From a bacterium (GTDB taxonomy: Bacteria; Patescibacteriota; Minisyncoccia; Phycocordibacterales; Phycocordibacteraceae): 64,000 nucleotides of DNA. Within the stretch, counting starts at the first letter, position 1. The number at the start of each line of letters is the position of its first letter. The notes beneath the pieces are model-generated. The model made no database searches, was not told where the DNA came from, and worked only from the letters and a program-made list of their open reading frames with translations. The stretch covers positions 190,356 to 254,355 of the forward strand of contig JAHFML010000001.1 of the NCBI GenBank assembly GCA_023269085.1, read 5' to 3'. Made by a program: the position numbers and the translations under genes. Below, one piece after another: positions 46,069 to 57,698 of the stretch.

Positions 46069-46152
46069 TGCCGCGAGGGAGACTTGAACTCCCAACCCCT
46101 TGCGAGGACTAGCTCCTGAAGCTAGCGTGTTTACCAATTTCACCACCGCGGC
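46069..46152 (-). tRNA. tRNA-Leu (CAG)
   Basis: 84 nt; long variable arm; anticodon loop TTCAGGA; acceptor GCCGCGG/CCGCGGC. Confidence 0.85.
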
Positions 46153-46159
46153 AAGACTT

Positions 46160-46637
46160 GATTATGCTCATACTTTGCTGAACTTTCAAATATTTCCTCT
46201 TCAGCAACGGTATGCCTTTTCTATAATACAGGTAATTACACAAAATGACCGCTTCTCTCTTGGCGAACCGAAGTTGAACATACGTCGTGCCGGCATACCG
46301 AGTTATATGACCTTTTACATGAACCATGTCACTTATTCGCTTTCGCAACCAATCGATGAAGGGCGGACTCGCCGATAAGAAACTCGCGAAATAAGACATC
46401 GCCAAACTGAATGCGATGGTAAAGGTTCCCTGTTCCAGAATGTTTAATCCCAATCTTTGTTTTGATACCGAAACATTTCTTGAAAGTTACGACTTGTTCA
46501 AGATCTTTTGAAGTGAAATCAATATGTCTGCCGTCATTCAACAGACAGCCATCTGCCGTTAATAATCCGATTGCGTACGCAAATTTTGGTGACCATTCGA
46601 TCTTTACTGCCCCTTTTGGCTTTGGTCCCCTCTTCAT
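46160..46637 (-). pseudogene. frameshifted LAGLIDADG homing-endonuclease remnant in an AT-rich insert
   Basis: ORF 46329..46637 carries a LAGLIDADG-like block FAYAIGLLTADGCL; a second half continues in another frame (ORF 46109..46453, ...YVQLRFAKREAVILCNYLYYRKGIPLLKRKYL); local GC ~40%. Confidence 0.6.
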
Positions 46638-46733
46638 TGCCTTTATTATAAACTGACCTATATAGCGTATACCAATTTATCCACTATGCCAGAAAAAACG
46701 GCCTGCCGCGAGGCAGACCGAATTGGCTTCCAA

Positions 46734-47663
46734 TTACTTCAAATCATCGAGGTACGTCTTGAGCGCAAACGCTCGCCACGAACCCGACTCGACCCCGCGC
46801 AAGACGAAACGACTCACCTCGATTCTGAACTCCTCTTGCCTCCCCTGTTTGATCAACAGGGCGAGCTTTCGGATATCCTTCTTCTTCGGGTTGTTGGCCC
46901 CTTTCGCAAGAAAGCCGATCAACTCCTCATAAAGATGACGATCGTTCAGCAGAATGGTGGCAAGCTTCTCGAGCCTGACGATGCACTTCAAATACGCTGA
47001 CCGATAATCAGCCAGCCGCACCAGCAAGCTCGCGACAAGGCGCACCACGCCTCGTTCGCTTACCACCTCATTTTCAAGCATGAACTGAATCGCTTCCGCG
47101 CTTCCCGCGAGACCAATGTCGACATGCGGTTCGAGACATTTCGACTTGAGGAATTCGCTTGAGATATGTTCTATCCCCCGCTCCCAAGCCTTAATTTCTC
47201 GTGCCACCGCTTCATACGGGAGGCTTGCCATGCCGACAATCTCATCGCCACCGTATCTCCCGAAGGAAACACAGGGAGCCTGGTCGGTCGTAGCACCAAT
47301 ACTGCTCAAGAGAGCATCACCGGCTTCGTGTGAAGCGTTGTTCACCAGACTCAAGAACGACACATCCCCGAACACGATCCAGAGGTCATTCTCGGCGCCG
47401 ATTGACTCACGCCCTTCGGACAACCGGTTATTCTCAATCTCCTCCGGCAAAAGAATACCCTTGACCTTTTCATTCAGGAACTGGAACCATTGCCCCCGAG
47501 TGAACAAACCGGTAACCATGTCGACACCGGCGTGCACCAATTCGTCTCGGGCGGACCGGAGCTCTGATTGCAATCCGACATTGTTCCTCTGTATCTCCTT
47601 ATGGAGTTTCGGGTATCGTCTGTCGAAGTCGGCTTTCAATATGTCTTGGCACTTCATGCACAC
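46734..47663 (-). CDS. GGDEF-domain protein (diguanylate-cyclase-like) with C-terminal domain of unknown function
   Basis: 309 aa; GGDEF-type motif RYGGDEI; lower-GC DNA. Confidence 0.6.
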   Translation of the reverse strand: MCMKCQDILKADFDRRYPKLHKEIQRNNVGLQSELRSARDELVHAGVDMVTGLFTRGQWFQFLNEKVKGILLPEEIENNRLSEGRESIGAENDLWIVFGDVSFLSLVNNASHEAGDALLSSIGATTDQAPCVSFGRYGGDEIVGMASLPYEAVAREIKAWERGIEHISSEFLKSKCLEPHVDIGLAGSAEAIQFMLENEVVSERGVVRLVASLLVRLADYRSAYLKCIVRLEKLATILLNDRHLYEELIGFLAKGANNPKKKDIRKLALLIKQGRQEEFRIEVSRFVLRGVESGSWRAFALKTYLDDLK

Positions 47664-48033
47664 TCTCCTTATGCAAGTTGGGCTCCGCGTATGCGGAGCC
47701 CGGGTTGAAGTTCATGCGGCGTCCTTTTTGAAAGGCCGCCCCCAGACCTCGTCGGGGTCAATCAGCGACGATGATGGCAGTGCTGCAAACGCGGCACTGC
47801 GATGCGCTTCTTCTTCGCGCGCATCGACTGCTACGATGCCGAGCGCAACGTTCTGGCGAGCAAGCCCGCGAAGTGACCCATCAGGGTCCCACTTGTTGAA
47901 AAAATCTTTCAGGCTCTCTCGAGCCAAGAGATTGTTTTTCATACCATGCTCCTTGGTTGGTTACGGGAACAACTTCCAGTTAAAAGTATACCAAAATACC
48001 AAAAATAATCAACTATCCCAAATTTCTGTCTGT

Positions 48034-48108
48034 TGGTGCCCCCGCGAGGAGTCGGACCTCGAATAGCGGCTTAGAAGTCCGCAGTTATATCCGTTTAACT
48101 ACAGGGGC
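48034..48108 (-). tRNA. tRNA-Arg (TCT)
   Basis: 75 nt incl. CCA; acceptor GCCCCTG/CGGGGGC; D-loop AACGGATA with A20; anticodon loop CTTCTAA; imperfect 31-39 pair. Confidence 0.7.
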
Positions 48109-52439: not shown

Positions 52440-52735
52440 CAATAAAGCGAAGCGAATATTGTGCTCGAGAGCACGTCTGGGAGACGTGCGGCAAGGAATC
52501 GAAAACCTTGCGAGCATTTTATCGAGCTTTCTGAAGCGAAGAAAAAATCCGCAAGGTGTACGCTGAGATTTTAAAAGAGCGAAGCGACTATTAAAATCCA
52601 AGTGCAGTTTCGAAGAAAGCTGCCTGAACCTGTAAGGTTCGATAAGCGTACTCGCGGTCCTTGCAAGCGTACTTTTCATTCTGAACGATTTGCAGGAAGA
52701 CGTCTCGTAGTACTATAAATACTGAGAATTAACGT

Positions 52736-53290
52736 ATGTCTAAATCTACTAACCTTAAATACTACTATCTCGAACAATATCTTGAAACAGAGGTACGGCC
52801 TTATTTTGAAAAAGAACATCACCTTACATCCGAACAGTTTTTTGCGATTATCGAATGGAAGAATCCGAAGTTTGGAAAGACTAAACTCACACACCTCAAA
52901 CCAAAAGACATAGAAAAACTTTTTAAAACTATTTACGGCGAGTCTAGGGAAAAGCAACTGAAAATTCTAGTAGACATTAAAGGTCTAAAGCTAGCCACTG
53001 CTTCTGCAATCCTTACGATTCTATATCCAGAAAGGTTTACGGTTTATGATGTGCGTGTTCGAAAGCAATTAAGAAAGCGAGGTCTGTGGGAAGAAGAACC
53101 CGATGATATTACTTATTGTGTCGACGTGGTAAATAGATACTTTGATAAATATCTACCCCCGATAGAGAAACTGGCTACAGACAGCGGGCTATCACTTCGT
53201 GATTGCGATCGTGCCTTGTGGGCACAAGATTGGCATGAAGACCTGATGGACTTCATTATTGCAGGTTCGAGCGAAAACAACACGGTTTAA
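52736..53290 (+). CDS. hypothetical protein (possible HhH-like motif), low-GC
   Basis: 184 aa; IKGLKLATASAILTILYPERFTVYDVRV; ~40% GC. Confidence 0.3.
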   Translation: MSKSTNLKYYYLEQYLETEVRPYFEKEHHLTSEQFFAIIEWKNPKFGKTKLTHLKPKDIEKLFKTIYGESREKQLKILVDIKGLKLATASAILTILYPERFTVYDVRVRKQLRKRGLWEEEPDDITYCVDVVNRYFDKYLPPIEKLATDSGLSLRDCDRALWAQDWHEDLMDFIIAGSSENNTV

Positions 53291-53298
53291 AATAATAT

Positions 53299-53913
53299 AT
53301 GAACTACTTCAAACCGATCCTGTATAGCATCAGTGTCCTTCTACTGGTCGCGCTGGTGTCCATTCGGTATCAACACGCAACACAAAAGGTTGTTGTGCCG
53401 ACTGTCTCATCAGCAACCTCATCAAACGACGCACCCTCTGATATGAGTCCCAACTGTGCCGCCTATTACAACAACGCAGGGAACGGTACGGACCCAATTG
53501 ATACGGAGCTCGCCGACTTCACTAACTTACACCCACTTTCTGATTATCTCTGCGGATCATATTCAGATGTCCTGAAGACGACACTAGCTGACGGCAAGGT
53601 TCTCTATTTTGTAGATCCAATCGCTCAAGAATCGTGTGGTAGCGGCGGGTGTACATATTTCCCCATGATTGAGGAGAGGCCGGGCGCAATCCGCCGTATA
53701 CGCGGTTTTACGGGTGGTTCTGACGCAGGTGATGACTCAGTCTTTGGCTTCCTGTCTTTCCCAAAGAAAGGAGTGGTGGAGGTGTACTGGCACGAGTCGG
53801 CAACATGCGGCACGACGAACACTTACGGATTCACTGCTACCGATACTCCTTATCTAATCTCCACATCTGACAGCTGCTCACAAGAAGGAGGCGTACAGCC
53901 TCAAAGAAAATAG
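53299..53913 (+). CDS. secreted/membrane-anchored Cys-rich hypothetical protein
   Basis: 204 aa; N-terminal hydrophobic segment; 8+ Cys. Confidence 0.35.
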   Translation: MNYFKPILYSISVLLLVALVSIRYQHATQKVVVPTVSSATSSNDAPSDMSPNCAAYYNNAGNGTDPIDTELADFTNLHPLSDYLCGSYSDVLKTTLADGKVLYFVDPIAQESCGSGGCTYFPMIEERPGAIRRIRGFTGGSDAGDDSVFGFLSFPKKGVVEVYWHESATCGTTNTYGFTATDTPYLISTSDSCSQEGGVQPQRK

Positions 53914-53930
53914 GTGCTCGTATTTATCTC

Positions 53931-54002
53931 GCCTCCGTAAGCTAACGGATAAACTACCTCGCTTCTATCGAGGCCTTGGGGGTTCGAATCCTCTCGGAGG
54001 CA
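53931..54002 (+). tRNA. tRNA-Arg (TCT), second copy, island-associated
   Basis: 72 nt; acceptor GCCTCCG/CGGAGGC; D-loop AACGGATA; anticodon stem CCTCG/CGAGG, loop CTTCTAT; T-loop TTCGAAT. Confidence 0.65.
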
Positions 54003-54015
54003 CTGATGGTAAATC

Positions 54016-54154
54016 CTCGCCGCGATTTCGTTTCCCGCTTCGGCCGAATCAATCGACCATGCCGTAGCGGGCAACCCCGAGGCCATCATGGCGCAGGTCG
54101 GCGCCATGCACCTTACGCCGCTTTCCGATCAGGATGCGGCGCAGGTGCGAGGTG
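54016..54154 (+). repeat. leader-module repeat copy 1 (5'-truncated; starts 14 nt after the tRNA)
   Basis: 139 bp nearly identical to the 3' part of copies 2 and 3. Confidence 0.8.
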
Positions 54155-54393
54155 AGGGAATCTCTGTAGCCGTATTGATTGTCAACCTCAAGTGGCTTTA
54201 CAAAGTTTCCGCACCTTTCAGGCAATTCATGAGTGGCTACAGAGCGAGTCAGATATTTGGTTGGGAATGGGGCAGAGCGTTATCAATTGCCCAAGGCAAT
54301 CCAGATCCTGGGCAATTGTCTAGCCATTCGCTAGAAGCTACATTCATTTACTGGCTTGGTAATAACTGGACATATCAACTCTTTTACAAATAG
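54088..54393 (+). CDS. cassette 1: truncated secreted-peptide precursor (conserved leader remnant + unique AT-rich C-terminal part)
   Basis: MAQVGAMHLTPLSDQDAAQVRG then divergent 80 aa; in-frame upstream TAA removes the signal peptide, so possibly a pseudogene. Confidence 0.4.
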   Translation: MAQVGAMHLTPLSDQDAAQVRGEGISVAVLIVNLKWLYKVSAPFRQFMSGYRASQIFGWEWGRALSIAQGNPDPGQLSSHSLEATFIYWLGNNWTYQLFYK

Positions 54394-54495
54394 CACACAT
54401 GAAATATATGCGTGGCGCTCTGTAGAAACTGATGAGTCCAAAGAGGGTCTACAGACCCTCTTTTTATTTGTCATGATTGTGGTAGATTCCCTTAT

Positions 54496-54840
54496 ATGAA
54501 GAAACTACTAAACAAAATCCTGTTTGCACAATATCTCTTCGCGCCAGAGATTATTCCTTTATTGGCGATTCTTTACTTCTTCGCCATGGTCTTTTCGGTG
54601 CACTTTGTGTTGTCTCTTTTTGTAGAAATAAACACGACTATCTTGATTTGGGTCTTCGTTATTGCCATGGTGGTGTTTGCCGTAACATTTCTTCCCGTAA
54701 TGATGCGGTTTGCGAGTGGTTGGCCATCGGGAAAAGAGGAGGAAAATTTGATTGATAAGTCCAGTCCAAGTGATCGTATTATTTATACTCTACTGTTTCT
54801 CGCTTCTATCTTCGTATTTTATTATATCTATGTGAAATAA
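54496..54840 (+). CDS. small polytopic membrane protein (immunity-protein-like), AT-rich
   Basis: 114 aa; 3 TM helices; directly downstream of cassette 1. Confidence 0.35.
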   Translation: MKKLLNKILFAQYLFAPEIIPLLAILYFFAMVFSVHFVLSLFVEINTTILIWVFVIAMVVFAVTFLPVMMRFASGWPSGKEEENLIDKSSPSDRIIYTLLFLASIFVFYYIYVK

Positions 54841-54920
54841 GAAGCTGACGTGTTTGGGGTGAACAGATACGCAACCAAATGGCGTATGGTATGTTGAGAA
54901 GTGGACATAGTTCTTTTCCC

Positions 54921-55143
54921 GAAGAACATCCTGTCCGTTCCCTTCAAACTCTCAAGGAGTCTGCAATGCGTACAGCATTCACTGCAGTACTCGCGGCGAT
55001 ATCCCTCGCCGCGATTTCGTTTCCCGCTTCGGCCGAACCGATCGACCATGCCGTAGCGGGCAACCCCGAGGCCATCATGGCGCAGGTCGGCGCCATGCAC
55101 CTTACGCCGCTTTCCGATCAGGATGCGGCGCAGGTGCGAGGTG
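54921..55143 (+). repeat. leader-module repeat copy 2 (5' UTR + RBS + signal peptide + conserved leader)
   Basis: ~223 bp, ~98% identical to copy 3. Confidence 0.85.
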
Positions 55144-55331
55144 CAGCATGGATGATTCCTGGTTGGATGTACGCCATCGTTTCTAAATTTCTGAGTGCAG
55201 GACATCTGGTAAGCTCATTCGGCGCCAGTTACCTGAATCAGATGGCGGCCGAGTATGGCTGGAAAATAAACGGCATCCCAGTACGGTTCTCTCTCATGGA
55301 TGCAATCTTCGTAGCTCCACCTGCACGTTAA
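54966..55331 (+). CDS. cassette 2: secreted peptide precursor (Sec signal + conserved LSDQDAAQVRG leader + unique Trp/Tyr-rich C-terminal peptide)
   Basis: AAGGAG RBS; MRTAFTAVLAAISLAAISFPASA signal with AxA site; conserved 36-aa leader; unique 62-aa tail. Confidence 0.55.
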   Translation: MRTAFTAVLAAISLAAISFPASAEPIDHAVAGNPEAIMAQVGAMHLTPLSDQDAAQVRGAAWMIPGWMYAIVSKFLSAGHLVSSFGASYLNQMAAEYGWKINGIPVRFSLMDAIFVAPPAR

Positions 55332-55394
55332 ACAATACTCAAAGTACGGTTTGATGTGTATAACCGGACGCCCCCAATTGGGGGCGTTTTTATA

Positions 55395-56150
55395 TCATAG
55401 ACTTGTGATTAAGTTCCCAATAATGTCTGATTTTCGTATCGGTCCGAACGAGCGTGAGTCGGTGCTTGAAGCGCGATTATCACCAAGCACAAAATATTCA
55501 TCGGGACCGAGCGTGGTGACAGAATCCGGTGTTGTGCTCCCGAGTGAATAGGGTTCATTTAATGATAATCCGTTTGCGGACACTACTCCACCACGAATAT
55601 CGATACGCTCGCCAGGTAATCCGATAACTCGCTTAATGATAAATGCTGGTGCCGATACATCTTGTTCACGCGATACAACCACCTCTCCTCGCAGGAAATT
55701 GTGCGGGATTTCATTTACAATGAGGTACGCTCCGTTTTGATACGTTGGTATCATGGAGTCCCCACTCATCACAAATGGCGAAACGATAAACATCCTAATC
55801 ATCAGTGCCAAGGGCACTACTATTGCAATAGTTATACTGATTGATGCAAGATAGGCACTTGTTGCACGTAGAAAAGATACGGGGAATCTCCTCTTGAGGA
55901 GCCACGTGCAGATACCGATTGATACGATCGCGTCGAATACGAGCGGGATTGGCAATGCGACGATGCGCACCATTTCTCCCGCAAGTCCGCCCGCGATATT
56001 TGCCACGAGCACAGTGATAACGGCATACCCAAATGTCGGACGAGGGAATGCAAACCTTCTTTCGACCCACAGGAGAACAGCGGAGCTAAGTGTGAGAGAC
56101 AGAACGGCAACTACTGTCATAACAATGATGAGCACTGTTGAGATATTCAT
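55395..56150 (-). CDS. lepB: signal peptidase I (S26) with unusual ~120-aa, 4-TM N-terminal extension
   Basis: catalytic SGDSMIPT and GDNRASSTDSRSFG motifs; start taken at MNISTV. Confidence 0.8.
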   Translation of the reverse strand: MNISTVLIIVMTVVAVLSLTLSSAVLLWVERRFAFPRPTFGYAVITVLVANIAGGLAGEMVRIVALPIPLVFDAIVSIGICTWLLKRRFPVSFLRATSAYLASISITIAIVVPLALMIRMFIVSPFVMSGDSMIPTYQNGAYLIVNEIPHNFLRGEVVVSREQDVSAPAFIIKRVIGLPGERIDIRGGVVSANGLSLNEPYSLGSTTPDSVTTLGPDEYFVLGDNRASSTDSRSFGPIRKSDIIGNLITSL

Positions 56151-56207
56151 ATCTACTAAGAATACCACGTGTGGTGTTCGGTGATATTCGATTATTTCGA
56201 GTTAAGA

Positions 56208-56431
56208 AGAAGAACATCCTGTCCGTTCCCTTCAAACTCTCAAGGAGTCTGCAATGCGTAAAACATTCACGGCAGTACTCGCGGCGATATCCCTCGCCGC
56301 GATTTCGTTTCCCGCTTCGGCCGAACCAATCGACCATGCCGTAGCGGGCAACCCCGAGGCCATCATGGCGCAGGTCGGCGCCATGCACCTTACGCCGCTT
56401 TCCGATCAGGATGCGGCGCAGGTGCGAGGTG
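56208..56431 (+). repeat. leader-module repeat copy 3
   Basis: ~224 bp. Confidence 0.85.
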
Positions 56432-56595
56432 AGTTCTTGCCCGCTGCGATTATCCCAATGTTGAATTACATTTACTACTTGGGGGTGATGTATGGAATAC
56501 CTACCGCAGTTAATTACGCAGCGGAGATCGGCAGTAGCCCTTGGATTGCAAAGCAATATGTGAAGGACCAAGTCAAGAAGTATTTTGGCTGGTAA
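56254..56595 (+). CDS. cassette 3: secreted peptide precursor (same signal + leader, different C-terminal peptide ending KYFGW)
   Basis: MRKTFTAVLAAISLAAISFPASAEPIDHAVAGNPEAIMAQVGAMHLTPLSDQDAAQVRGE then a unique hydrophobic/aromatic 55 aa. Confidence 0.55.
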   Translation: MRKTFTAVLAAISLAAISFPASAEPIDHAVAGNPEAIMAQVGAMHLTPLSDQDAAQVRGEFLPAAIIPMLNYIYYLGVMYGIPTAVNYAAEIGSSPWIAKQYVKDQVKKYFGW

Positions 56596-56694
56596 GCAAT
56601 TCGATGAGTACTGAATAACTTCGGCATCAACAAAAAGTGCCATGCTGGATCAGCATGGCACTTTACTATATAAATCTGATACAATTTCACTATC

Positions 56695-57081
56695 ATGATC
56701 TTCTGGAAGATATTTGCTTGGACAAATGCAATTATAAATGTTCCGTTCGTTATAGCGGCTCTTTTCGTCACGCCAGTGTTCCACGCCCTCGATGTCGCCG
56801 TATGGTTATTCAACGACTTTCCATTACTGGCTGTCCCTTTCTTGTTTGCGTACAAAGTACACGGAAAGAGATATATTCCTGCACTCGGTGTTTTAAAAGC
56901 TATTTTTGTTTTCTCTATAACTTATAACACCATTCACACCATCTCCGATTTCAAAGTATACCACTTCACTAGTATGCCCGGATTCCTGTTCGATTTGTCT
57001 TTTTATATCCTCATCATTCTGTCATTAATTTCTTTTTTGTTCTACATAAAAATGGAACGCGGCCTACAAGCGCATCATTAG
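56695..57081 (+). CDS. small polytopic membrane protein (immunity-protein-like), AT-rich
   Basis: 128 aa; 4 TM helices; directly downstream of cassette 3. Confidence 0.35.
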   Translation: MIFWKIFAWTNAIINVPFVIAALFVTPVFHALDVAVWLFNDFPLLAVPFLFAYKVHGKRYIPALGVLKAIFVFSITYNTIHTISDFKVYHFTSMPGFLFDLSFYILIILSLISFLFYIKMERGLQAHH

Positions 57082-57433
57082 CGCAGATCATATTCCACTT
57101 CCAGCGGCAGAGTTCCATCGTGGTAGATTCACTATATATGAAAGACTGCAAAAAGACAGGAACAACCATATGATGCATACTATATGAAGGGAGATCTCTA
57201 ATATATGGAAATCACTTTTTTCTCTGCGCTTAAACTTATAGGAATTGTTCTCGGGCTTGTGGCCATTTTTGCGAGTTTTGCTTTCCCTCTATTTTCAAGC
57301 ACTCAATTTGATGACATGCCAATCTGGATAAAAATCCTCGTTCCCATGATTATTACGGCGATTTCATTTTGGGTTATACGATAATCCGCAAACGAATATT
57401 TTAAAAATATCCTGGATACCGTATTGTTATCGC

Positions 57434-57631
57434 ATGCAAAAAATACTGTTCGATATTCTTATTTTGATTGGTGTCGGTATTGGCATTTTGTCGATTACTG
57501 CCCAAATAGCCCATAGTCTGTTCTCGGGCGTATCTTTCGATTCTTTGTCATGGAAAGTCAAAATGGCCATGGCAGTTGTGGTGGCACTCATTTTCTCAAT
57601 TTTTGAATGGTACACGTATACTCTCCTGTAA
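57434..57631 (+). CDS. small 2-TM membrane peptide, AT-rich
   Basis: 65 aa; a second 59-aa membrane peptide ORF lies at ~57206-57385 (MEITFFSALKLIGIVLGLVAIFASF...). Confidence 0.25.
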   Translation: MQKILFDILILIGVGIGILSITAQIAHSLFSGVSFDSLSWKVKMAMAVVVALIFSIFEWYTYTLL

Positions 57632-57698
57632 CAAGACCTAATTACGGATACTAAGAAGTCCCGCGATTGGTAGTCGCGGGACTGTGGCGCATCGATAT

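Follow-up and report, generated by a model that had tools for sequence, protein, structure and literature searches.

Does a signal peptidase gene that lies amid cassettes for small secreted peptides serve those peptides, or does it stand there for another reason? The question is raised by a stretch of 64,000 nucleotides from a Patescibacteriota genome (GenBank assembly GCA_023269085.1, contig JAHFML010000001.1, positions 190,356 to 254,355 of the forward strand), which we refer to as the window and whose own numbering is used throughout. On its minus strand, at 55395..56150, the window carries the gene of a long-form type I signal peptidase (SPase), in which the catalytic domain is preceded by an additional membrane module. 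As a rule, signal peptidase I is a housekeeping enzyme that is essential and varies little. Our reading, for which we estimate a probability of roughly one half, is that the window protein is an intact and probably active SPase I from a long-form lineage specific to Patescibacteria, and that it is most likely an accessory paralogue which arrived with a foreign island of about 5 kb.

The identity of the protein as a member of the S26 family is clear. It matches the Pfam model Peptidase_S26 (PF10502) with 115.5 bits against a cut-off of 22.9 (E 3e-33), and the NCBIfam model for signal peptidase I (TIGR02227) with 106.1 bits against a cut-off of 47. With the structures 4NV4 and 4WVH (SpsB) as alignment references, the motifs SGDSM (Ser132, codon 55755-55757, minus strand) and IKRVIGLPG (Lys173, codon 55632-55634, minus strand) fall on the catalytic Ser and Lys of Staphylococcus aureus SpsB and Bacillus anthracis SPase I. 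Box E, GDNRASSTDSR from residue 223, likewise aligns with box E of these two enzymes. The best structural matches retrieved with Foldseek are SpsB (4WVG) and SipA (4N31), and alignment and structural comparison together delimit a minimal S26 catalytic domain at residues 122-251 (55398..55787, minus strand). The initial annotation had described the catalytic motifs as intact, and Ser132, Lys173 and box E are indeed all present and aligned to solved SPases. Judging from these motifs, the window protein is a complete type I SPase that is probably active and would be able to cleave signal peptides. Two more specialised identities were considered and rejected, as both scores remained below threshold: TraF (TIGR02771) with 39 bits against a cut-off of 100.25, and SodX (TIGR02754) with 42.6 bits against a cut-off of 63.25.

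The start of the gene needs a comment, because it affects the part of the protein that is unusual. The minus-strand open reading frame (ORF) spans 55395-56168 and would encode 257 amino acids (aa) from a GTG start, or 251 aa plus stop from the ATG at 56150, which is the start favoured by the alignment of homologues. The public gene call for the protein (P0001, 241 aa, 100% identical, on the 307-kb NCBI/ENA contig) begins ten codons further downstream, at Met11. Since this start would cut away a third of the first helix (window 56121-56150), the public call is probably too short. Neither the ATG at 56150 nor Met11 has an obvious Shine-Dalgarno sequence, whereas the cassettes have AAGGAG.

The N-terminal part contains four hydrophobic segments, as seen by Kyte-Doolittle hydropathy. 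The AlphaFold2 model, with a mean predicted local distance difference test (pLDDT) value of 83 and values above 90 across the N-terminal part, places helices at residues 3-32, 40-64, 69-88 and 93-121, followed by a beta-rich S26 domain. Two basic loops, ERRFAFPR and KRRF, both predicted to be cytoplasmic, fit a topology in which the N-terminus is outside, and from hydropathy, loop charges and the modelled helices the catalytic domain is predicted to be outside too. The fourth helix (residues 93-121; 55788..55874, minus strand) leads straight into box B in the AlphaFold2 model, and the Pfam S26 model starts with it. It is the canonical SPase anchor, so the real addition comprises about 92 aa and three helices (residues 1-92, helices 3-32, 40-64 and 69-88; 55875..56150, minus strand), as delimited by hydropathy, AlphaFold2 and the hidden Markov model (HMM) of the family. 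The initial annotation had proposed an extra four-helix domain of about 120 aa. Its four N-terminal helices are confirmed, but the last of them is the normal anchor of the enzyme.

The three-helix module has no match among the Pfam families. The roughly 15 best protein matches of the window protein are also about 250 aa long, align along the whole N-terminus and have the motifs KLFKIxNPxYKKS and KKYYxxxWKKSLGIY in common. A profile of the 100-aa module, searched against 1.84 billion (1.84e9) cluster representatives, retrieved 221 proteins at E <= 1e-3, of which 53 also passed E <= 1e-10. With an HMM from which both the window protein and its nearest relative had been left out, window residues 6-101 aligned to profile positions 3-99 of 100, with a score of 37.9 bits (E 2.3e-4 at Z = 1.84e9). 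Among the 162 proteins with this module that we examined, 106 were S26 fusions, about 50 were short stand-alone proteins and six carried other extracytoplasmic domains. In the 106 fusions the module is joined directly upstream of the S26 anchor helix, exactly as in the window protein. Some of the stand-alone proteins (P0128, P0125) look like frameshifted or truncated gene calls, so that their number is an upper bound. The six remaining proteins (P0173, P0181, P0186, P0247, P0251 and P0262) have the module fused to unrelated extracytoplasmic domains, among them a weak PsbP-like match and a Cys-rich domain, and such fusions suggest that it acts as a general anchor or targeting module.

The long N-terminus is thus a trait of a Patescibacteria long-form family and is unrelated to the cassettes. 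The initial annotation had considered a dedicated processing role plausible and had named two findings that would together speak against this, namely its presence in relatives lacking the cassettes and the absence of any other SPase I from the genome. The first is what we observe, as the long N-terminus occurs in more than 100 S26 proteins of Patescibacteria and at about 30 sampled loci, none of them with cassettes. A phage origin was considered as well and rejected: the module is absent among the IMG/VR contigs searched, and the viral S26 matches are short forms only. No description of a long-form S26 family was found in the searched literature. The enzyme belongs to an established class, but neither Pfam nor this literature contains the three-helix module, the family that it defines or the widespread loss of the catalytic dyad described below.

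The evidence for an acquired copy comes from the surroundings of the gene. It is located in a low-GC island of about 5.2 kb (52441..57690), recognised by GC content and tRNA scan, which also holds the cassettes and several small membrane proteins and sits between tRNA-Arg(GCG) and tRNA-Arg(CCG). The GC content of the island is 45.6%, compared with 57.4% in the remaining window. At third codon positions (GC3) the SPase gene reaches 0.456 and the other island genes 0.36-0.47, while the genes for RecA, DHODH, MetRS, ArgRS and PilM in the window range from 0.68 to 0.82. The low GC3 together with the location in the island indicates that the SPase gene is probably an acquired accessory copy and not the ancestral lepB. 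The island brings along its own tRNA-Arg(TCT) gene (53931..54003, plus strand), which abuts the truncated cassette 1 and clearly differs from the chromosomal tRNA-Arg(TCT) gene at 48034-48108, 6 kb away. The divergence of this second gene, within a low-GC island, suggests a foreign origin. Furthermore, a direct repeat of 223 nt, made up of a 5' untranslated region and leader, occurs on the plus strand at 54921..55143 (copy A) and 56209..56431 (copy B). The copies are 98% identical at a spacing of 1288 bp and bracket the segment with the core of cassette 2 and the SPase gene, so homologous recombination could delete or insert this segment as a unit.

What could such an enzyme cut? The SPase gene is convergent with cassette 2 and divergent from cassette 3, at a distance of about 100 bp. 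The ORF map bears out the earlier statement that it is the only non-cassette protein-coding gene between the two; no further gene is found there. The leader segment of the cassettes (150-223 nt) is present in three copies in the island and is complete only in cassettes 2 and 3. Cassette 2 (54966..55331, plus strand) encodes a precursor of 121 aa (P0122) with the signal peptide MRTAFTAVLAAISLAAISFPASA, followed by EP, and cassette 3 (56254..56595, plus strand) one of 113 aa with the same signal peptide and pro-region and a different core. Both have a textbook Sec signal peptide, MR(T/K)..AISFPASA and then EP, behind a strong Shine-Dalgarno sequence (AAGGAG). Next come a conserved pro-region of 36 aa and then cores of 55-62 aa that are unrelated, hydrophobic and rich in aromatic residues. 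At its end the pro-region reads LSDQDAAQVRG[E/A] (window 55080-55143 and 56368-56431), which fits the double-glycine consensus LSxxELxxIxGG at positions -12, -11, -8, -4 and -2. By this fit the end of the pro-region would be a leader of the double-glycine type, and its position behind a Sec signal peptide is an unusual combination. Neither Pfam nor NCBIfam returned a leader or bacteriocin family for the cassettes.

Cassette 1 (54004..54393, plus strand) is truncated at its 5' end, as seen in the alignment and the ORF list. Its leader homology of about 150 nt begins directly after the tRNA-Arg(TCT) gene; this gene and an in-frame TAA upstream stand in place of the start and of half the signal peptide, its first part. 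The first ATG, at 54088, is inside the pro-region. From this ATG the cassette would give a 22-aa leader of the double-glycine type without a signal peptide. It resembles the "orphan" module of a polymorphic toxin array. The initial annotation had placed an AxA signal-peptidase site in all cassettes; a usable ASA site is found in cassettes 2 and 3, whereas cassette 1 has lost the start of its signal peptide.

From these features the following mechanism can be proposed. The three-helix module would come first in the membrane, the usual anchor helix next, and the minimal S26 domain would face the outside. There, Ser132 and Lys173 would cut Sec signal peptides at AxA sites, including the sites between ASA and EP in the precursors of cassettes 2 and 3. 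The module itself would probably not serve catalysis and would rather position the peptide-binding cleft of the S26 domain beside a membrane partner or a class of substrates, because it also anchors many S26 domains that are dead and a small number of unrelated extracytoplasmic ones. The variable cores would be freed by a second cut after the pro-region, not by the window SPase, and a C39-type peptidase, such as the one encoded near a sister-strain cassette, would be the better candidate for this step. A role of the SPase dedicated to the neighbouring peptides is possible. In this picture, domain architecture, intact motifs, membership of the family, foreign composition and adjacency are established, while enzymatic activity, topology, accessory status and any preference for the cassette peptides are inferred.

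The observations that come next, and those that open the three paragraphs after this one, weigh against our reading. The tie between SPase and cassettes consists of adjacency and co-residence in the island, and the SPase gene, being on the opposite strand, shares no transcript with either cassette. At the other long-form loci, leader and cassettes were found in none of about 30 sampled. Moreover, the leader family is private to one species. With the cassette-3 precursor as query, 5.8 billion proteins yielded two matches: cassette 2 of the same contig, and P0121, a 96%-identical orthologue of cassette 3 in a sister strain (ENA contig ERZ27297709, 2974 bp). On that contig, a gene for a 268-aa protein (no Pfam match) and then one for a 215-aa Peptidase_C39 are arranged divergently from P0121, and no S26 gene takes this place. 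The initial annotation had proposed, as a check, to look for co-occurrence of the long form and the leader family across genomes. The leader is found only in its own species, including the sister strain, and at no other long-form locus; with a leader private to one species, co-occurrence across genomes cannot be shown. The dedicated processing role considered plausible in the same annotation is supported in part. In its favour are the adjacent cassettes 2 and 3 with their canonical SPase I sites, the intact enzyme and the signs of an acquired copy, and against it stand the lack of co-transcription, the missing cassettes at other loci and the dead relatives, to which we now turn.

Alignment of the long forms to a profile built from conventional short SPases showed that 52 of 106 keep the nucleophile Ser and that 36 have Ala in its place. 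The general-base Lys was kept in 63 of the 106, and both residues in 28, counting the window protein and its duplicate database entry. Ser, Lys or both are lost in 78 of 105 long-form S26 proteins; the short-form relatives from the same search have both dyad residues in all cases (100/100). The nearest relative of the window protein, P0002 (59% identity), has Ala at the position of the nucleophile. A rough neighbour-joining tree groups the window protein with P0002 and P0169, each with the change from Ser to Ala, and parsimony on this tree indicates at least 23 independent changes of dyad state. The same pattern of loss was seen in an independent sample of 19 metagenome loci. With 78 of the 105 long forms lacking the dyad, catalysis is dispensable for the usual role of the family, and as most members, including the nearest relative, are affected, the core function of the family is probably not proteolysis. 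The dyad-dead long forms keep the Met following the nucleophile position (78/78), Pro (77/78), box D Arg (74/77) and box E Asp (68/70). The retention of these flanking motifs points to maintained proteins instead of decaying genes, and by their sequences these long forms look like pseudo-peptidases. In public annotation every long form bears the name "signal peptidase I", a label that probably does not fit about three quarters of the family.

These losses bear on a second explanation, in which the window protein would be mainly non-catalytic. It would bind signal peptides or pro-peptides at the membrane as an escort, chaperone or receptor, similar to SipA, and its dyad would be ancestral and non-essential for the role in the island. 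The combination of a lost dyad and kept flanking motifs is the pattern of a maintained pseudoenzyme, and the many independent changes in the tree add to it. P0002 has exchanged its Ser for Ala, yet it is accompanied by the same neighbouring gene family with two transmembrane (TM) helices as the window protein. In addition SipA, which has the S26 fold without Ser and Lys, is among the best structural matches. However, the window copy has retained all the catalytic and structural motifs that active SPases have, and a loss of the SipA type is not seen in it. In the canonical relatives (100/100) the dyad persists only because it is in use, and the simplest explanation of its retention here is therefore activity. 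No binding partner was identified either. We therefore consider a mainly non-catalytic window protein unlikely, and return to a probably active enzyme.

Whether this enzyme is accessory depends on the presence of another one. No second S26 gene came up in the window when all six reading frames were searched by hmmsearch with a profile built from 120 homologues, and genomes of the Candidate Phyla Radiation (CPR) are small, often with few paralogues. One dyad-intact long form, P0011, is surrounded by SecA, IleRS, RRF and an M50 protease, a housekeeping setting as for a sole SPase. Together with the wide occurrence of the long N-terminus without cassettes, this is what one would see if the window gene were the sole housekeeping SPase I of its host, its N-terminus a peculiarity of the lineage and its position among the cassettes incidental. 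We judge this explanation improbable. The GC3 of the gene (0.456) is far from that of the housekeeping genes (0.68-0.82), and the gene is located in a low-GC island with a foreign tRNA. Its closest relatives P0002 and P0169 are dead and so cannot be the sole SPases of their hosts. The sister-strain contig has other genes beside the cassette-3 orthologue. Furthermore, the window is a small part of the genome, as the contig alone has 307 kb. A tandem of a dead long form (KGAAM) and an intact short SPase of 209 aa (GASM/IKR) at the loci L092/L093 shows directly that a long form can exist as a paralogue alongside a canonical SPase. Thus, we favour the accessory, acquired copy over a sole housekeeping enzyme.

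The loci of other long forms paint a varied picture. A conserved gene neighbourhood was considered and rejected, as the contexts differ and the lone shared neighbour is the two-TM gene beside P0002. Among the contexts are LGT and MFS genes with six type IV secretion system (T4SS) pilin genes 5 kb away; SecDF, a sigma factor and a TraG-like protein; LytR, a short SPase and HisRS; and islands of small hypothetical genes near tRNAs. In the first of these (L002, 2538-5338), the six T4SS_pilin genes (PF18895) are in tandem, 5-7 kb upstream of the dyad-dead P0006. At another locus (L090), DUF8128 and then a TraG/TrwB-like ATPase come after a dead long form. For these two contexts, a link to T4SS-like systems of CPR bacteria is possible. 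At a further locus (L006, ENA scaffold_4497), the contig as such is a perfect mirror-image palindrome with its centre between two long-form copies, most likely an assembly artefact.

The remaining features of the island add to the question of what kind of locus this is. Between the convergent genes of cassette 2 and the SPase we read from the sequence a GC-rich palindromic hairpin, ACGCCCCC-AATT-GGGGGCGT (55368-55387), followed by a T-run (whole element 55368..55392). It is not listed by the consensus scan, and it is likely a terminator shared by both genes. Cassette 1 is followed by a multi-TM protein of 114 aa (54496..54840, plus strand), which is immunity-like by position only, and cassette 3 by one of 128 aa (56695..57081, plus strand); neither has a family match in Pfam or NCBIfam. 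In the sister strain a conserved gene of equal length (128 aa) lies downstream of the cassette-3 orthologue. Two small two-TM proteins of 59 and 65 aa with the motif SFDDxPxWxK follow at 57205..57631 on the plus strand. A 61-aa homologue of these (L004, 1035-1220; E 6e-8 and 4e-4) is located directly after the gene of the nearest relative P0002, and among the long-form loci this family of about 60 aa was found at the window and at P0002 only. Homology between the N-terminal module of the SPase and the 114-, 128-, 59- and 65-aa membrane proteins was considered and rejected (E 0.5 or worse). Outside the island, a second stretch of lower GC (46100-48100, 42-55%) lies between tRNA genes. In it, two long ORFs of opposite orientation overlap (46734-47663, minus; 47116-48066, plus), and Pfam matches neither of them.

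The small membrane proteins invite a third explanation, in which the SPase would be a protective or regulatory part of a bacteriocin-like locus that might, for example, degrade or retain membrane-active peptides at the membrane of the producer, its N-terminal module being a domain of the immunity type. The hydrophobic aromatic-rich cores, the small multi-TM proteins after the cassettes and the single 5'-truncated "orphan" are features of polymorphic toxin/immunity arrays, and the SPase gene stands behind cassette 2 in the slot that a membrane protein fills behind cassettes 1 and 3. Against this, the module is unlike the other membrane proteins of the island, and the family occurs at many loci without toxin-like genes, as in the SecDF, LGT and HisRS neighbourhoods. 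There is also no PADLOC or bacteriocin family evidence, and the NCBIfam scan was empty for the cassettes. An immunity-type function of the SPase is thus very improbable, and an accessory, probably active SPase remains our preferred reading.

A broader view of the family can be offered as a tentative speculation, to be held with more doubt than confidence. The long forms may be membrane pseudo-SPases found throughout Patescibacteria, receptors or escorts for signal peptides and pro-peptides, of which the window copy would be a still-catalytic member in a bacteriocin-like mobile island, taking part in a two-step, Sec-dependent maturation together with a C39 peptidase. The findings point to a CPR lineage that has added a conserved membrane module to an SPase, lost the dyad many times and kept the fold, which is a hallmark of repurposing for binding over cutting. 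Should the task of the family lie with particular secreted peptides or surface structures, this would bear on how ultra-small episymbiotic bacteria arrange secretion and antagonism between cells.

Compared with known signal peptidases, the window protein combines familiar and unfamiliar traits. With LepB, SipS and SpsB (S26A, TIGR02227) it shares a homologous catalytic domain with box B Ser, box D Lys and box E, and an anchor directly before this domain. The domain is minimal and of the Gram-positive type, and SpsB is the closest in structure. It differs from them by its four TM helices, three of them extra and conserved, where the known enzymes have one or two, by the location of its gene in a compositionally foreign island, and by belonging to a family that is mostly without the dyad. 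SodX, which acts in the maturation of Ni-SOD, and the conjugative TraF are S26 relatives specialised for one neighbouring substrate, and their models give weak, sub-threshold matches around box E. However, their architecture is different, and neither sodN nor a T4SS pilin gene lies near the window SPase.

Another parallel is found in Bacillus subtilis, in which SipW is a second, non-essential SPase encoded between genes of secreted proteins that it processes (tapA-sipW-tasA). SipW is a Ser-His enzyme of the ER/archaeal type and is co-transcribed with its substrates. In contrast, the window enzyme is of the P-type with Ser and Lys, its gene is on the strand opposite to the cassettes, and any link to substrates is putative. 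The cassettes, for their part, resemble the double-glycine leaders processed by C39 peptidases, of the class II bacteriocin type, in the end of the pro-region and in the C39 gene beside the sister-strain orthologue of cassette 3. They differ in the Sec signal peptide that precedes the motif and in the lack of a leader HMM match, and Pfam scans of 50 ORFs revealed no C39 peptidase or ABC exporter in the window.

A last comparison is with SipA, which has the S26 fold without Ser and Lys and is essential in pilus assembly (PMC4049620). The Streptococcus pyogenes SipA/LepA-type protein (4N31) is a top structural match of the window protein and, like it, places an S26 fold inside an accessory cluster for secreted proteins. 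SipA lacks the N-terminal module and has only one anchor; it belongs to Firmicutes and is associated with sortase and pilins, whereas the window copy keeps both Ser and Lys. If the long forms as a family do bind rather than cut, they would be a second independent example, beside the streptococcal SipA, of SPase folds used non-catalytically.

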